Of a stretch of DNA of 64,000 nt, positions 8,525 through 64,000 are shown one piece after another (the first letter of the stretch is position 1; the number at the start of each line of letters is the position of its first letter). The DNA is from Thalia democratica (lineage: Eukaryota): the NCBI GenBank assembly GCA_965202585.1, contig OZ241830.1, forward strand, positions 10,726,001 through 10,790,000, in the 5' to 3' direction. The notes beneath the pieces are model-generated. The model did not search any database. It saw only the letters and a program-made list of their open reading frames with translations, and was not told the DNA's origin. Position numbers and translations under genes: made by a program.

Positions 8525-10260
8525 ATATTAATAAGGCCCGCTATCAGCCGAGATCGGCTATGCGTGTTGTGCACAGAGAAGAAAAAAAAATTACATGTTA
8601 AAAAAAAAACAATTAAAATCATTCTGCTTCTTATTTCTTCATCTTCTTCTTCATTTTTCTAAAATATTCCTTTTCTCTTTCTTGCAGTCTTTTGTGTATA
8701 GTTGATCTCCATTTGGCACGGTCATTTGCAAGAAACTCCCAATCATCAGTTCCAATGTTCAAGCTTTTTAGGTCGCGCTTGCATACATCCTTAAAACGTA
8801 ATTTTGGACGTCCTCGGTTTCGTTTGCCAACGACCAAATCGCCATACAATAGAAACTTTGGGATCCGCTCAGTATTTATTCTCAGGATATGACCGAGCCA
8901 GCGAAGCCTGCGCTGACTGAGGGTAAAGTACATAGTGGTAAGACCAGTACGTCTCAATACTTCCTCATTGGTGATCTTTTGCTGCCATGTAATTCCAAGG
9001 ATGCGACGAAGGCATCGTAGGTGGAAGGTATTGATTTTCTTCTCCTGTACGCTAGGTAACGTCCATGTCTCGCTACCGTAAAGCAGAATACTGCAGACAC
9101 AGGAACGGTAAACGTTAGCCTTTGTTCGAATGCTTAGCTTTTGGTTATTCAAAATTCTTGCAGTCAAGCGAGCGAAAGTGCCTGATGCTTTGCCAATGCG
9201 ACTATTTATTTCTTTGTCCAATGATGCGTTTGACGCAACATTTGAGCCAAGGTATACAAAGTTATCTACATTCTCGATATCCTTACAATTGATCTTGATT
9301 GATGGTAAAATATTTGTTCCTTGACTTAGAATTTTAGTCTTCTTAAGGCTTATAGTAAGGCCGAAATCCGAGCATGCCGAAGAAAACTGATTCAGCAATG
9401 TCTGCAGGTCTTGGGCAGAGTGAGCCACGAGTGCAGCATCGTCAGCAAATTAAAGATCACGTATGATGACTATCTTTAGATTTCGCTTAGCTCTTAGATT
9501 TGAAGGGTTGAAAAGGTGTCCGTCAGTTCTTGTATGAAGCTTGATTCCAGTAGTTAATGAATTAAAAGCATGCTTTAATAGCATCGAAAAGAAGATTCCA
9601 AACAAAGTTGGAGCAAGTACGCAGCCTTGCTTTACCCCACTTTTGATTTCAAATGAATCAGATACACTACCATCATATTGAATGGTTGCCCTTGTGTTTG
9701 TATGAAAAGACTTCACAATATTGAATAATTTTGGAGGACATCCAATTTTCAGCAGTATAGCATATAGTCCTTCTCTACTTACCAAGTCAAAGACTTTAGT
9801 GAGGTCAATGAAAGCGATGTACAAAGGCATGTTCTGCTCATTACATTTCTCTTGTAACTGACGTACAGAAAAAATCATGTCGGTGGTAGATCTTTTAGAC
9901 CTAAATCCACATTGAGACTCAGGATATACTCTTTCAGCCAGCTTTTGAATACGAGGAAGAACCACTCTTGCAAAAACTTTACCAGCAATCGCAAGAAGAG
10001 AAATTCCCCTGTAACTATTGCAGTCCGATCTGGAACCCTTGTTTTTATATAAGACTATGATCTTAGCATCACGCATGTCTTGTGGCACCATACCTTCTCT
10101 CCAACATTTGGCTAAAATATCATGTAAATGAGGTAACAAGCATGACTTACAATTGCGGACCAAGTCCGCTGGTATGCCGTCACTACCTGGAGCTTTCCAC
10201 GGAGCCAGCATATCAATGGCTTATATCACTACTTATAATTTGTGATGTTTTAGGGGCATT
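8525..10260 (-). mobile_element. 5'-truncated RTE-clade non-LTR retrotransposon (LINE); endonuclease domain absent
   Basis: RT motifs KAPGSDGIP, SYRGISLL, QCGFR, FIDLTKVFD, GVKQGCVLAPTLF, FADD and YLGS. RTE-type C-terminus RLRWLGH..RIPK..LYG..GKRNRGRPKLRFKD. 3' end has a small hairpin (AGCCGA/TCGGCT) and a short TTA/TAA-like tail. Both boundaries are approximate. Confidence 0.93.
8631..10211 (-). pseudogene. Reverse transcriptase ORF of the RTE element, broken by one in-frame TAA at 9450-9452
   Basis: ORFs 9450..10211 and 8631..9428 are in the same frame and read through as IIRDL*FADDAALVAHS; the FADD codons are at 9438-9449. Confidence 0.92.
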
Positions 10261-56290: not shown

Positions 56291-56683
56291 TGTTGTGGCA
56301 TTTTGCAATTTAGATTAGTATACAGTATAACCACTGACCGATGGCTCGGTCGTAGTTAGGTTAGGTAATTGCTTATTGTTGCTTTTCGCCTTAGTTTGCG
56401 ACCGCGTCATGCGTTTTATGTCGTCCATCGATAAGCGTTTGGACGACATGAAATCTTAGTTAAAATATATATATTTAATATTAAAACTTTCTAATATATA
56501 TTCTAATATATATTCTAATATAATTATAAAACGTTCTAATGGAACGATCAATAACTTTAATGTATTGAGCTTATTTATAATCTAGTATCTAGAAAACAAC
56601 TTTAAGTGAATGGTGAATTTATATACATTTAAAAACAAAACACGACAATGTGATAAAGTAACGTGATGAAGTTCTACCACAAC
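56291..56683. mobile_element. Candidate LTR-like or terminal segment of the adjacent virus-like cassette
   Basis: Starts TGTTGTGGCA and ends TACCACAAC(T), 8/10 inverted identity. Contains two GC-rich hairpins and TTAGGTTAGG. No partner copy lies in the window. Confidence 0.3.
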
Positions 56684-56975
56684 TGACTCGAGGTTTTCTT
56701 AAGCTTAGTGACTGTACGCTGGTTACAATTTATAAAACTCAAACAATTCTACTATCCTTTGCAGAGCTTCTATTCCCTTTGGCCAATCCGTCAACAACCC
56801 CAACAACAACCCAAAACATCCTTTTAACACACTAAGAAAAACTTATTTATTTTTTCACTCTCTTCTCTACTTACTACGTCACGCACAAGTCTTTCTGTAA
56901 TTTTCCACTTAAAACTTTGACTCCTTTGATGTAAATTCCACTTAACTTATCTTTGACTCCTTCATTGTACTTCTC

Positions 56976-57128
56976 GAAACAAGTAGTAAACTACTACTTG
57001 TTATACTACCCTTCCTACCTTACTTAGTTGATTTGTTTTTATCTTCTGAGTGCTAAAATATTTGAAGTTATTTTCTCGTTCTAGCTTTTGAAACAAGTAG
57101 AAGCTACTACTTGTTATACTACCCTTCC
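56976..57128 (+). repeat. Two copies of a ~40-bp hairpin-containing unit (56976-57015 and 57090-57128)
   Basis: GAAACAAGTAG..CTACTACTTGTTATACTACCCTTCC occurs twice, each with a 9-bp stem AACAAGTAG/CTACTTGTT. Confidence 0.85.
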
Positions 57129-57695
57129 CTAACTTCGTTTTTTTTTTTTTTTAATAATCTAAATGAGCACTTGTAGTTTGTATTTACTTTTGCTATGCTA
57201 AAACCTCTACCCAACTTAAGACACTGCACCCAAAAAAAACCTCACTACAGTCGTTAGTAGAACTAAGAAAAAGTTAAATTACGAAATTAATTTTTTACAG
57301 GAAACTGTAAAACTTTACCTTAAAACATGAATTGTTCGAGACTCAAAATATGAGAAAATAAACACGAAAAAAATGCTAGTATTTAAATTTACTGGAAGTC
57401 TCTATCACTTCTTAATCTAAGTTTGAACAATGTTAATTTGGTTAAGCATGACAAAATAAAAAAGCATTTTCATTGAAATAAAAATAAAATTCTTTAATAA
57501 ACAATAGTTTTCAGATTAATAGTTATTTTTAAATACTAAGAAAAACATTTTTTTGTAGAAATACACTAATATAGTTTTTTAAAACGATTAAAAAAAATTA
57601 ATTATAAGATGTTAGCAATTACACACAATTTTTAAAACAGAAAAAAAAAAAAAAATTAATTAATACCTAAGCTACAATTTGTCTTGTAAGTTCAC

Positions 57696-58054
57696 GTACA
57701 CAGTTCTCGTTGATGGGAACCTTCCGTTGCTGGAAAAGGAAATCTCTCGGACAAGGGGTTCGTTCTTCTGGGGAAAACTCGTAAAAACACAGCTTCTCGT
57801 TGATAGGAACCTCCCGTTGCTGGAAAAAGGAAATCTCTCGGACAAGGGGTTCGTTCTTCTGGGGAAAACTCGTAAAACACAGCTTCTCGTTGATAGGAAC
57901 CTCCCGTTGCTGGAAAAAGGAAATCTCTCGGACAAGGGGTTCGTTCTTCTGGGGAAAACTCGTAAAACACAGCTTCTCGTTGATAGGAACCTCCCGTTGC
58001 TGGAAAAGGAAATCTCTCGGACAAGGGGTTCGTTCTTCTGGGGAAAACTCGTAA
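57696..58054. repeat. Four near-identical 90-bp GC-rich tandem repeats
   Basis: TTCTCGT ends at 57710, 57800, 57890 and 57980. Units differ mainly in A-run length. Confidence 0.95.
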
Positions 58055-58113
58055 CCTTGGTGGAAAAGTGCTAGGGACTTAAAACTTAGCTTGATTGAGA
58101 GGAAAACAGAGTG

Positions 58114-60192
58114 CTACATCGAGCTCGGATTGTCTTGTCCGAAAAACTCTGGTGTATTTAAATTTGTCTCATTTACACAAGGGAACCAATGCGACATGTG
58201 ATCTTCGTTTTTAAACGTTTCTTCTATTTCCGAAAAAGTTTTAGCTTCTTTAGAAACCGATTTCAAGGCCGTTCCCACCTGGAGGCAGTTCGAGATTTCG
58301 TGCGACTGTTCCATAATCTCGGCTGTCCCATCTCCTTCATCTCCATTTTTCCAAATCTTTGGTAATAACCCTCCGTCATTTGCTACTATCTCTTTTCCTT
58401 TTTTTATAGATGACTTCGAGATTCCGTGCGACTGATCCATAATCTTGGCTGTCCCATCTCTTTCATCTCCACTTTTCCAAGTTTTTGATAATAACCCTCC
58501 GTCATTTGCTACTTTCTCTTTTTCATTTTTTAAAGATGACTTTTGTTTTTTATTCAATTTTTTACTGTCTGTCTCAATCTCTTCCTTTCCTGTGTCTCTA
58601 TATTTCATCTTGATATTTGGTTTATCCTCGGACGCAGTTCTTTTCACGACATTGACATCAATATCTCCACATTGAATAGAAAACAGGTGGTGTATATTTG
58701 TTTTTGCTTTGCAAAATCTCTCGAGTCCATCTTGAATGGTCAAGCAACTCATTTTTTCATCTTCTATATTTTTCAGTTTGAGCTCTTTAACTTGTTGTTT
58801 CCATTTGACTATTTCTTTACTATGTTTTTCTTCATGCTCTTTGTTTGCCTGTTTGAGTTCCTTTAACTCTTTCAAGAGATTTGTTATTCTTAGTTTTTTA
58901 GTTCTTAGTTTTTCTTGGACGTTTTCCTTTTTTCTCTTTTGCTTATTTAATTTTTATTGCAATATTTCAATGGTATGGTTGGCGTTAAGTATTTTGTCAC
59001 AAAGCTCAGTTCCTTCCTTTCTATAATTTATTTCGTCCTGCCTTAAGTCATTTATAACTTCACTTTTTTTTCTAAGTTCGGCTTTTAACCTTTCTACTTC
59101 AGTTCCCAAAAATTCCATTGCCCCTTTCACTTTAGAATCATTAAATGATTGTACAGCTTTCTTTATGAGTACTTCTTGTAAAAGTTCCACTAACTCATTT
59201 TCTTGGAGAGTTTCTTCCTCTTCATGGATAACGTTTGAAAGATTTTTTTCATCCTCAATTACCATAACTTTTGTTGCATCCTTTTCTTTAATAACCTCTT
59301 TTTGTTTGACCATTTTCTTGACATTTTTTTGGTCGTAGGCAAGGTGAGACTCTTTAGAATTTTTAACAAAACTTCCCACATCTTCGAGGTTGTTAGATCT
59401 TTCCTTTGCAACTTCCATTTCACTTAAAGTGTGCTTTTTTAGCTTAGTTGCTGATTCATTTTTCACTCCTTTAGATATCTCCGTCTCTTGAATTTGAACT
59501 TTGCTATTTTCTTTTCGTTTCTCCTCCGTCGTATGTAAAATTTTTACACCAGATTGAGTTCGTACCTTTTGTGGTTTTGTTTCTTGAATCGTACCATCTT
59601 CTTTTTGCTTTTTGTTAGTTGTCTGGGCTGCCTCTTCGCTAGTTGGCGTTCGTGCTCTTTTCGTTGGCATAGTAACCTGCTTCCCACTATTTCCTTTTTG
59701 TATGTTATTTGTCGAGGAAAATGTCCTATCTCCTGATTGCGTTTCTACTTTTCTTGATCTCGTAGCGCTGATATTTATTTTCATATGACTCTCCTGAATA
59801 TTTTTTGATGTTGTCCATGACCCTTCATTAGATTGCCATCGTCTCGATGGCATTGTATTCCTACTCACATTTCTAGTTGGTTCGTATCTTGATTTGTTGA
59901 GTCTCATATCTTCTTCTCTTCTTGGCTGGTTATTTCTTAATGAATAGTTTGATCGTCTATAATATGAGGACCTGGAAGGTGGCGTTCTTCTATTGTCTCG
60001 GCGATAATAACTATTTGTTCGACGTATAATTCTTCTGTCTTCCGTTCTTCCGTCATATCTTCTATCTTCAGAATCATATTTGTCTCTTCTGTGATCACTA
60101 TTTTTGTTCCCATCTATTTCTATTAAACTATCAGTTTCGCTTGCCAACAAAGACAGAGCGTCTTCGGATTTGTTCGTGCTGTGACAACTCAT
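58114..60192 (-). CDS. ~692-codon ORF (Arg/Ser-rich N-terminus, long coiled coil, acidic/basic tail) with one internal TAA at 58954-58956; function unknown
   Basis: ORFs 58954..60192 and 58114..58875 share a frame. The intervening codons read KLNKQKRKKENVQEKLRTKKLRITNL with no further stop, and the K/E-rich heptad pattern continues across the TAA. Confidence 0.75.
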
Positions 60193-60429
60193 TTTTAATT
60201 AAACAAAAATGCTGTTAAGAAGAATAATTGTTATCCAAACGTTAAAATATATATATTTTATTTATTAATTTATTTATTTTTTTTAATATTTTTATATTTT
60301 TTAACCAACTCATGTTTTATTTTTTTATTTTTGGATAAATATTATTTTTAGTAACTTTTATAAGTTCATATTACTTACTTCACTCTATTGTTTCAATGCA
60401 TTCTCAATTTAAGTATACTGTGGCTTTGT

Positions 60430-60482
<53 letters not shown>

Positions 60483-60627
60483 AAAGTGATGTGAATGAAG
60501 AAATAATGTGATTAATATTATAATAATTATCCCTGACCTTGCTGCTAATGAAGGAAAAAGGAAAAACAAAAAAAAAAAAAAAATAATAAAACCAATATAT
60601 ACATGATCAGTAACGGCCACCTATTTC

Positions 60628-62343
60628 TCATTTTTTATCCCCCTCATTTGGTTTTTTTCCACATTTCTCCCTTAATGTTTGAATAATAACAACAACAATT
60701 AAGATTGTTGCTATAATTGTATAAATATGTCCTAAAAGTCCTAAGATATTCTTAATTTTCTTCCAAATCGAATATTTAATTTTTTCCAGCATGGCCCTCA
60801 CATTGTTGTAGTCCATAGTATGCGTTTCTGCCAGTAATTCTTCTATGTTGATTCCATCACTTATATATTCTTCCTTGGTAATTAACAACAAGTTCTTGAG
60901 TTGCTGCTGTGTAACATCTTCTTCAGACCAAGAAACTTCTTGTAAGTCTTCATTTAGGTTTTCCTCTAAGATGTCGAAACTTTTTTCCTCTAGTTCAACA
61001 TTTTTTATTGTAATCTTTTTCAGTGCTGGTATTTGATCGATTAGGGTATTGTTATTGTATATTATAAAGCTGTCATTGAAACTAAATGTCTTTCGTTTAG
61101 TAGGTGTAACTGTAGAGCTAATTTTTTCCGTAAGAAATCTTCCTTGGCGTAGTGATGTAAGCTTTGCTTCCGTGCCAGTATAGGCCACAAATAATGGCCT
61201 ATCTGACACATGACCTTTATAATATAAATTAGGCTGCAAAACTGCTTGGACTTTTGAGCACCTCAGTTCCTTTAAAATCCCACCTGCGAATATAGCCTGT
61301 ACCTCTCTTTCGAGAAGATAAGACAAGACTTGAGATGGATTTAGACTTTGACTTCCCATAAGGGCTACTATATTTGCCCGTGCCATTTCACAGGTAACTA
61401 ATTTAAAATAGTTCCTAAAATTTTCGCTGTTCAAAAACGATCCATGTGCAATAGATGTCATTGTGGCTTGAATATTTCGTAGTGATGCTGGTATATTATC
61501 ATCTGCAGTTTCAATTGGCTCAATGTTGCTTTCCTCAGGAATTTCCAGCACATGATTGGTCATTGTACAAAAAAATTTCGATTTTTTCATTTGTTTTAGG
61601 CAGGCTAATGATTTTGGTGAGCATTTCATCAGGTTGGATACAATTAAGTTTGTTTCGTCTAGTTCGAATAAGTTTCCTTTTGAAGTTTTATGAATTATTA
61701 GAGTTTTATTTTCACTCCTCGGTATAGTTTCACAGGTTTTTTCTCTAGGTTCTACATAATTGATTCTCCAGTTTCCTGCTGTGCAAGTTTTGAATTTTCT
61801 ACTGCAAAACAATTTGCCCAACGATATGTGATGTAGTTCTTCTGTCACCACATTTTTTGTAATTGTTAGATAGTTTAATTCAACATTTTTTACTTCTATT
61901 AGGTTTCCAAACCATCCATATTCCGGTTCCAAAATGTTTTTCGTAGTCATGGATCCATCCGCGTTTGGTAAGAGTCTCCCAACCGAAGTGAAGTGTCTTT
62001 GTTCCCACAATTCACACTCCCTCTTTGTTACTAACTGGTGTTCCGTTCTTATTAAGTTGCAGACATTACTGCCGAAAAGGTAATGTATGCAGTTATAAAT
62101 ATCTTTTGTCATTCTGCAAGCTTTTGCCCCTAAGTTATACATTTGGTTAAAAGGTTTAAAAACCCTTACTGGGTATATTTTAGTAGTGTTTCCTTTGTTT
62201 ATGCATTTCCCAGGGGGTATAATTTTGAATTGTTGTATTACCTCATTCTTGCAAAGGTCTATATATACCTTCCTTGTTATATCTGAATAGACCATAGCTA
62301 AGCAAAGTGTTGTTATCCATAATGTTTTCATGACCAGCTTCAT
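60628..62343 (-). CDS. Intact class III viral fusion glycoprotein (herpesvirus gB / chuvirus G / rhabdovirus G-like envelope protein), 571 aa
   Basis: Signal peptide aa 1-20, TM aa ~533-554, short cytoplasmic tail and four N-glycosylation sequons (N52, N212, N423, N431). C76-x8-C85-IHYLFG and EYGWFG are fusion-loop-like segments. C318..LNPS(334)..C362..RPLF(382)..KRKTFSF follows the spacing of the herpes gB core as I recall it. Confidence 0.88.
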   Translation of the reverse strand: MKLVMKTLWITTLCLAMVYSDITRKVYIDLCKNEVIQQFKIIPPGKCINKGNTTKIYPVRVFKPFNQMYNLGAKACRMTKDIYNCIHYLFGSNVCNLIRTEHQLVTKRECELWEQRHFTSVGRLLPNADGSMTTKNILEPEYGWFGNLIEVKNVELNYLTITKNVVTEELHHISLGKLFCSRKFKTCTAGNWRINYVEPREKTCETIPRSENKTLIIHKTSKGNLFELDETNLIVSNLMKCSPKSLACLKQMKKSKFFCTMTNHVLEIPEESNIEPIETADDNIPASLRNIQATMTSIAHGSFLNSENFRNYFKLVTCEMARANIVALMGSQSLNPSQVLSYLLEREVQAIFAGGILKELRCSKVQAVLQPNLYYKGHVSDRPLFVAYTGTEAKLTSLRQGRFLTEKISSTVTPTKRKTFSFNDSFIIYNNNTLIDQIPALKKITIKNVELEEKSFDILEENLNEDLQEVSWSEEDVTQQQLKNLLLITKEEYISDGINIEELLAETHTMDYNNVRAMLEKIKYSIWKKIKNILGLLGHIYTIIATILIVVVIIQTLREKCGKKPNEGDKK

Positions 62344-62686
62344 TATACTGTCTACCTTCCACCTTAAATTTTCTTAATTATAACCAAAACGAGAGAGGTG
62401 GAGAGAAAAAAAATAGTTCGCCAAAAAAAATTTTTTTTTTTTTTTTTTTTTTTTTTGCCCAATCATCTTAGTATTGAGAGCGGAAAAATAACAACATCAA
62501 AAATAAAATAAATAATAAGCAAGTAACTTTAACTTCCACATTAATTATACTTCATATGATACACGGTAATTTTGTGTGACAATTTCAAGTGCTCGAGTTT
62601 AAAGTGACATGGTTATGGAATTTCTCAAAAAAAAAAAAAAAAAAAAAAAATCATATATCTGATATATACAAAATTAATACGATGGC

Positions 62687-63010
62687 TTAATTGGTCTCTC
62701 CCACCATTCCAAAATACGGTTGGTTATAAATGATGAAATACCTTAATTTCATCTCCAAATTGAATAGTGAAATATCTTGAAAACTTATCATGTGAGTAAT
62801 TCCTACAAAACCTATTGCGTACGAGCATTTCTCACTTACTTCGTTTTCAAAAAGGAAATTAAAATGGGTGCAGAAATTTTTTATCATATTATTGTTTGAA
62901 CATTCATATAAATGAAAATTTTTATGTAAGAATTCTTTAAAGTTCTCATTCGAATTCATATAATTATAGAAGTCTTCTCCATATACGGGGTTAATCATAA
63001 GTAAGAACAT
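62687..63010 (-). CDS. 107-aa ORF, possibly small and secreted; function unknown
   Basis: Co-oriented with the neighbouring ORFs, short hydrophobic N-terminus (MFLLMINPVYG), three Cys, and a TTTTAG acceptor-like site 11 nt upstream of the ATG. Confidence 0.5.
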   Translation of the reverse strand: MFLLMINPVYGEDFYNYMNSNENFKEFLHKNFHLYECSNNNMIKNFCTHFNFLFENEVSEKCSYAIGFVGITHMISFQDISLFNLEMKLRYFIIYNQPYFGMVGETN

Positions 63011-63398
63011 TACAATTTTATCTAAAATAGTTATAATTTTTAGGGTGATTACTAATCAATATGCCTACAATAAATTTTACTTTGCTAAATTAGCTCAATT
63101 AAATTGAAGATGTAAAAATAAAATAAAAAAATAAAAAATTAGTGAGGGATGGAATAACAACATAGCTAAAAAAAATACAAAACAAAACATTTTCTGAGGT
63201 AAAACTACTTAATTAATTCAGTAATTCATAAAAAACTATAAACTTGTGTTTCGTAATTATAAATATAGACAATCATATTTAAACATACATTTTTATTATT
63301 AATTATATCTGCTTATTTGTTATTTAAATCTAAAAAAAAAATAACAGATATTATGATATTGAAATTCAATATTATTTAAAGTTAAGTAATTAGAAAAA

Positions 63399-63563
63399 TT
63401 ACATAAAAAACAAAAAACTTATAACAAAACCTAAATATTGTTTTTTCAATTTTGTAATAAAACTTGACGTCCGTTTTTCCATGACCCTTTCAACTTCGAC
63501 GTTTTTTTCTGACAGATGTCTCGTGGAATTGTCAAGCAAAAAGGTATATTCTTGTTTCATCAT
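63399..63563 (-). CDS. Possible 54-aa ORF with a hydrophobic C-terminal tail (below the ORF-track cut-off)
   Basis: MMKQEYTFLLDNSTRHLSEKNVEVERVMEKRTSSFITKLKKQYLGFVISFLFFM, translated by hand. It sits in a locally GC-richer island and may be the tail of a longer decayed ORF. Confidence 0.3.
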   Translation of the reverse strand: MMKQEYTFLLDNSTRHLSEKNVEVERVMEKRTSSFITKLKKQYLGFVISFLFFM

Positions 63564-63764
63564 GGACGTTTGAATTTAAAAGCAAAGTTTCTTTCGTTGA
63601 AACATCATCATAAAAAATATTTCATTTGGAGTATCTTTTTCCAAATATTTTCGAGCAGTTTAGCTCGGAATGTTTTCATAGTTCAACTATCTTTATAACA
63701 TAATAAATATTTTTATTTCTATTTAAGAAGTTTAATTAATTTCTATTAGGTGAGTTCCCTCTCA

Positions 63765-64000
63765 ACTTCTTCGTCCCCACATATCTTCCATATCAACTTA
63801 TCTGCTCCACACATTTCCATATTAACTTTTTCGTCTCCACACTTCTTCCATATTAACTTATTCGTCTCCACACTTCTTCCATATCAACTTATTCGTCTCC
63901 ACACATTTCCATATTAACTTTTTCGTCTCCACACTTCTTCCATATTAACTTTTTCGTCTCCACACTTCTTCCATATCAATTTATTCGTCTCCACACATTT
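63765..64000. repeat. 30/31-bp tandem array (TTCGTCTCCACACTTCTTCCATATTAACTTA) running off the window end
   Basis: CTCCAC/CCCCAC ends at 63780, 63810, 63840, 63871, 63902, 63932, 63963 and 63994. Confidence 0.93.

Follow-up and report, generated by a model that had tools for sequence, protein, structure and literature searches.

The window analysed here is a stretch of 64,000 nucleotides from Thalia democratica (C6:10726001-10790000 of an 802-Mb animal-type assembly, against which the genome searches were run). It holds the 3' half of an 18,384-bp element that reads on the minus strand, carries a 4-bp duplication at both flanks and is firmly identified as an env-bearing Ty3/gypsy long terminal repeat (LTR) retrotransposon. 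A composition scan gives a GC content of 0.26-0.36 over 56-64 kb, against about 0.18-0.24 earlier in the window, a rise that the original prediction for this DNA had already pointed out. All on the minus strand lie a 54-aa frame (63399-63563), a 107-aa orphan open reading frame (ORF; 62687-63010), the 571-aa env (60628-62343), predicted to encode a class III fusogen of the glycoprotein B (gB) type, and a post-env ORF of about 692 codons (58114-60192). The four frames were correctly foreseen, but the longest, given as about 690 codons, has an in-frame stop at 58954-58956 in the window copy, and the 54-aa frame is likely no gene. In 300 shuffles of 58001-62400, stop-free runs reached at most 207 codons (mean 108), so the long minus-strand frames are far beyond chance.

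Anatomy and copies of the element

The replicase lies beyond base 64000, where it was expected by the original prediction, which read the visible genes as the structural ones of a mobile element that encodes an envelope. Gag and Pol form one frame of 1691 aa (C6:10795078-10800153), along which the Pfam matches run from protease (residues 655-734, below the cut-off) through reverse transcriptase (RT; 869-1029) and RNase H (1101-1195) to integrase (1344-1511). Between RNase H and the zinc finger of the integrase lie about 115 residues. The best PDB match of the frame is Ty3 Gag-Pol (E 1.8e-73), with the next other group at 1.1e-35, and Gag carries a CHCC motif, CX2HX9CX4C. The product is 24 residues shorter than the 1715-aa form of another copy, and the shortfall falls after the integrase. 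A 1.2-kb deletion in the window copy's pol was considered and rejected, because the other copy carries an insertion instead; a 1.2-kb insertion lies in the RT region of the C1 copy (L021:273-1470).

The segment once described as LTR-like and hairpin-bearing is a true LTR of 680 bp (56326-57005, minus strand) with TA...TA termini. Its partner at C6:10800030-10800709 is in direct orientation and differs from it at 1 of 680 positions (99.85% identity). The target-site duplication, ACAG, occupies 56322-56325 and recurs after the other LTR. A polypurine tract (57006-57023, minus strand) stands directly before the 3' LTR, and a second, duplicated tract follows at 57119-57133 on the same strand. This duplication of polypurine tract and LTR start (window 57006-57133) explains why one family has LTRs of both 680 and 793 bp; the extension that gives the longer form, found in 3 of 7 two-LTR copies, corresponds to 57006-57118 (minus strand). 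After the 5' LTR, the primer site matches the 3' end, with CCA, of host tRNA-Asn(GTT) over 10 nt. The gag ATG sits at LTR position 557, inside a 10-bp stem, and its frame runs on through the primer site. The stem-loop (56418-56449, minus strand; z -5.6) was equalled in stability by 0 of 200 shuffles, and its start codon is used from the 5' LTR copy. A gag start codon within the LTR also occurs in the six other env families of this genome.

Tandem arrays were originally taken to bracket the genes. The 90-bp array (57698-58054, four copies, in the 3' untranslated part), the 126-bp array (58289-58542) and the 31-bp array (63755-64000) do exist, but all three lie inside the element.

Copy numbers come from the genome-search candidates that were scored (76 of 263 for env, 40 of 207 for the LTR). 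Env has at least 81 genome matches, at least 13 of which, including the window copy, are full-length, stop-free and 97-100% identical. At least 12 LTR pairs stand 16.4-22.6 kb apart, accounting for 24 of the 40 scored LTR matches, and together with the near-identical env matches they indicate a recent expansion. The 4-bp target duplications match in six of seven two-LTR copies examined and are absent in one. So many copies with target-site duplications exclude spliced host exons and a contig joint, and none of the refuting conditions named with the original prediction applies. Sampled sequence words are 56-69% present in DNA runs under two organism codes, one of which may be the window's source.

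Two observations concern sequence outside the element. BTB/Kelch-like intron-poor genes, assigned to that family by inspection, recur near element copies (L026, L103, L104, L111). The first 56 kb of the window, thought to be free of genes, contain an RVT_1 (Pfam) reverse-transcriptase remnant in two frames on the minus strand (8631-10220), which looks by its motifs like an RTE-type long interspersed element.

Env and the flanking reading frames

Structural prediction gives Env its identity. An AlphaFold model built from 22 sequences has a mean predicted local distance difference test score (pLDDT) of 71.6 and a predicted template modelling score of 0.60; the single-sequence fold (pLDDT 36.8) was of no use. 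Foldseek against the PDB returns herpesvirus gB in all 40 matches listed (E 1e-18 to 1e-16), and against BFVD the matches listed include herpes gB together with chu-, nyami- and rhabdo-like glycoproteins. The top Atlas matches are rhabdovirus G and Monjiviricetes fusion proteins (0.97). Pfam matches stay below threshold, with Glycoprotein_B in 7 of 22 sequences and the rhabdovirus fusion domain in 6 of 22, and sequence searches of the PDB give weak gB hints (E 1.6-2) or no match. The protein has a likely signal peptide (by inspection), a single, C-terminal membrane segment at about residues 532-561, and 14 cysteines that 21-22 of the 22 sequences retain; the 22-sequence alignment shows no furin-like site. 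On this modelling, Env is predicted to be a class III, gB-type fusogen, in agreement with the original prediction.

Env is under purifying selection. For copies whose dS exceeds 0.05, the ratio of nonsynonymous to synonymous change (dN/dS) lies at 0.11-0.24, and a synonymous excess appears in four of four comparisons, as against none of four in a spacer control. Metagenomes hold 13 relatives at 37-95% identity, some of them at 56-64%, with none in the JGI metagenomes or in IMG/VR.

The 107-aa orphan ORF is also coding, a conclusion that is well supported. Of 26 full-length matches, 22 keep it open, and it shows a synonymous excess, the mark of purifying selection, in the three most diverged of five comparisons (p 7e-4, 2e-3 and 6e-5). 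It has no membrane segment and no match of substance in Pfam or the PDB. A profile search of 1.84 billion proteins returned only two outside clusters, at 90% and 41%, and nothing further. A signal peptide was dropped as a candidate, as the 41% relative has no such start. For three relatives of the 107-aa ORF, the longest contig has the same length (2665, 3103 and 3241 bp) as that of env relatives, which suggests that the pair is linked in the metagenome relatives too. The protein could be a small soluble assembly or host-interaction factor travelling with env; this is the likeliest single role, though at well below even odds.

The post-env frame consists of ORFs of 412 and 212 aa split by the in-frame stop. 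Of 11 full-length matches, nine keep it open, the window copy and one other being broken. Its product has an acidic N-terminus, is Arg/Ser-rich, with Arg enriched at residues 31-125, is charged throughout and contains 42-aa repeats. A coiled coil is likely; no membrane segment, no Pfam family and no Atlas match of 0.9 or more was found. The C-terminus differs between subfamilies.

The distance from pol to env is 6,666 bp. About 3 kb of this spacer, including the 31-bp array, match a dispersed repeat, one part of which has 41 genome matches; three matches checked lie outside an LTR-bounded element or in a different setting. This unclassified repeat of about 5-6 kb, with its 31-bp minisatellite, is seen at L015:1-5903, L023:1-6068 and L036:1966-7460, and an older copy is nested in the element's spacer. 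At C9:47135109-47142332 (L015, L016), a fragment with env, the post-env ORF and part of an LTR has a 796-bp copy of the 31-bp-array repeat on either side, the two copies being in direct orientation and 99.7% identical. Most older copies have the 54-aa ORF disrupted by 2-5 frameshifting indels, and it overlaps a stretch (63557-63668, minus strand) that matches the 120-bp repeat of a sister family's gag-pol linker at 72-77%; it is likely a relic and no gene.

Relatives and known systems

The same genome contains six other env families, for each of which one locus was read. Five of them, with env 27-38% identical, are plain elements of 8.9-11.1 kb with gag, pol and env only, pol being truncated in one. 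The sixth, a sister family with env 49% identical, measures 16.5 kb, has 1.2-kb LTRs and carries the 120-bp repeats in its gag-pol linker (L051-L053, L071-L073, L086-L089, L118; one copy has no env). It has its own ORF of 130-194 aa before env and a basic coiled-coil ORF of 393-428 aa after env, which begins with an acidic motif similar to that of the window family. A decayed third element (L058:9811 to L059:3300) also retains remnants of an ORF before env, of env itself and of a coiled-coil ORF after it, and the last of these looks similar.

Ty3/gypsy elements with a gB-type env, called 'ancient errantiviruses', have been described across invertebrates by Chary and Hayashi (eLife 2026, PMC13524379, used here in part), so that the kind of element is already described. 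The window element shares with them gypsy pol, the gag-pol-env order, LTRs, a tRNA primer site, near-identical copies and a class III env of the gB type that has a signal and a membrane anchor, these env features being predicted here. Unlike them, as far as those parts of the paper go, it reaches 18.4 kb, has a 6.7-kb pol-env spacer and an extra ORF on either side of env, ends in TA...TA and uses a tRNA-Asn primer. The filters given in that paper allow a pol-env gap of up to 1 kb or 5 kb downstream, a region of up to 10 kb and an LTR distance of up to 14 kb; size and spacer place the element outside them. In its table, 'Asn_GTT' and the window's primer motif have 0 rows, with many rows labelled 'others', and the word 'accessory' is unused in the portions of text at hand. 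Its figures and GitHub sequences, outside this comparison, may hold relatives.

The original prediction called the element undescribed and did not list this published group; what stands of that claim concerns the size and the additional ORFs. Full-text literature yielded no account of a gypsy element that combines a gB-type env with these genes, most subscription journals and Repbase lying outside the search. The extra ORFs and size thus appear undescribed as far as the searches reach, and the element is likely a more complex version of a described type.

Other lineages offer partial parallels, drawn from portions of the papers cited. The CsRn1 clade (CsRn1, PwRn1, Boudicca; PMC2582038) shares the CHCC Gag motif and the 4-bp target duplication, allows a fused gag-pol and includes some members with an env-like third ORF, but its primer is tRNA-Trp, not tRNA-Asn, and the extra ORFs and size differ. 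With its tRNA-Asn primer, the element is not filed as a CsRn1 member. Cer1 of C. elegans is likewise an LTR retrotransposon with an extra protein: CERV, with a leucine zipper and predicted to oligomerise, is needed for nuclear export of genomic RNA and offers a functional precedent for the post-env ORF (PMC10309623). CERV, however, is made from a spliced mRNA that has exons in common with gag, and it contains folded domains, whereas the post-env ORF is a separate frame after env; the two proteins were set side by side by description, not by sequence.

Large LTR elements with extra ORFs include Retand and Ogre of plants, Burro of planarians, rotifer ORF3 elements and foamy-like fish endogenous retroviruses (PMC11963269, PMC6431247, PMC5408684), and such ORFs can lie downstream of env (PMC6431247). 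Unlike the window element, Burro has env within its polyprotein and Retand has antisense ORFs. The passages of these papers on the five groups mention no gB-type env flanked by two such ORFs; PMC4402516, also in part, was among the literature compared.

Competing explanations and biological meaning

Very probably, the locus is an 18.4-kb multi-copy Ty3/gypsy element with a predicted gB-type fusogen and two extra ORFs; its likely vehicle of spread is an enveloped virus-like particle that would fuse into germ-line cells. Its anatomy points to replication by the standard gypsy route, in which Gag would package LTR-to-LTR RNA, and reverse transcription primed by the tRNA would yield the DNA to be integrated. 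Subgenomic RNAs would serve for the reading of env and both extra ORFs. Acceptor-like sites precede the 107-aa ORF by 11 nt, the post-env ORF by 19 nt and the sister family's post-env ORF by 33 nt, a weak hint of this in AT-rich DNA. Env would let particles or cells fuse, and entry into germ cells may be envisaged by analogy with Drosophila errantiviruses (PMC13524379) and Oikopleura Tor elements. For most members published in that paper, its available text leaves infectious particles unshown. Two marine metatranscriptome runs gave word shares of 0.18 and 0.10, which are evidence of nothing.

Several points weigh against this reading. The LTRs end in TA...TA rather than TG...CA, and the Ty3/gypsy assignment of pol comes from a similarity ranking. 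Template modelling scores between Env and gB are low (0.22-0.38), as expected across conformations, yet they offer no close fit. No acceptor-like site was found before env in the window family, and expression, splicing and particle formation are all proposed from the DNA alone.

The post-env ORF supplies the remaining objections, and with them the strongest rival: the same element, with this ORF as passenger cargo, a captured low-complexity sequence without a job that is open only through youth. A significant synonymous excess appears in none of eight comparisons, dN/dS is about 0.5-0.9, and BLAST (E 0.012), HH comparison (probability 0.7%) and tblastn (no match) detect no homology between the post-env ORFs of the window and sister families. 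The frame is indel-free in 11 of the 13 youngest copies, whereas 1.6 kb of spacer hold 9-20 indels in each copy, but this contrast loses force because homopolymers are more frequent in the spacer. Likewise, the nonsense deficit (3 vs 9.7, p 0.011) is nearly matched by the spacer control (4 vs 8.9, p 0.052). Cargo would also fit the two broken matches, the variable C-terminus, the missing Pfam or Atlas homologue and an element that has acquired a nested repeat and a gag-pol relic besides. Against it, about 2 kb of frame are kept open with few indels, the sister family has an acidic-start basic coiled-coil ORF in the same position, and the decayed element keeps its similar-looking remnant. Disordered proteins, moreover, often show weak residue-level constraint. 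We consider cargo somewhat unlikely and the post-env ORF, on mixed evidence, a probable working gene. Composition and the Cer1 precedent lead us to a tentative guess at its most likely role, at less than even odds: a nuclear RNA-binding oligomer that, like CERV or Rev, may serve export or packaging of the long genomic RNA.

A second rival, by which a negative-strand RNA virus supplied the three-ORF cassette as one captured block that gypsy lineages then exchanged, is highly improbable. Env does resemble mononegaviral and chuviral glycoproteins; the env tree groups the two families with extra ORFs (98/99), and the RT tree places the window family with plain ones (90/90). Approximately unbiased tests, however, do not reject one clade of the two complex families (p 0.063 for RT, 0.43 for integrase), which leaves the swap unsupported. 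Env is, besides, 27-38% identical to that of the plain families in the same genome, making env an old gypsy property, neither extra ORF has a viral match, and no relative occurs in IMG/VR.

An endogenous chuvirus-like virus, a BEL/Pao element or a Maverick, all able to carry gB-like fusogens (for BEL/Pao also in the methods of PMC13524379), has practically no likelihood beside an adjoining gypsy-type gag-pol and direct LTRs. For Jingchuvirales and Mononegavirales, the ORFs of the next 38 kb are gag-pol only, with no RNA-dependent RNA polymerase or nucleoprotein gene; for Maverick/Polinton, there are direct LTRs and RT instead of terminal inverted repeats and a protein-primed DNA polymerase, and no DNA polymerase B or such repeats occur among the ORFs listed. 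BEL/Pao (Tas, Anakin) was set aside because Pfam lists no BEL-specific family, going by marker names that we presume to be diagnostic, and the best structure match is Ty3.

With the retrotransposon reading preferred, a bolder proposal can be made, though with reserve and at less than even confidence. The window family may belong to a 'complex' Ty3/gypsy lineage, an invertebrate counterpart of complex retroviruses, that combines a gB-type env, an orphan 107-aa gene and a Rev/CERV-like RNA-export gene for its 18-kb genome, and that was missed through survey size filters. Env-bearing elements with accessory genes would then be hidden by such filters. The entry route of gB-type gypsy elements is an open question in the discussion of PMC13524379, as far as its available text goes, and young, selected copies beside plain 9-11-kb relatives in the same genome form a natural comparison for it. 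If the extra ORFs are cargo, a described group gains another large member; if they are true accessory genes, a complex-retrovirus-like organisation would have arisen in gypsy elements too.

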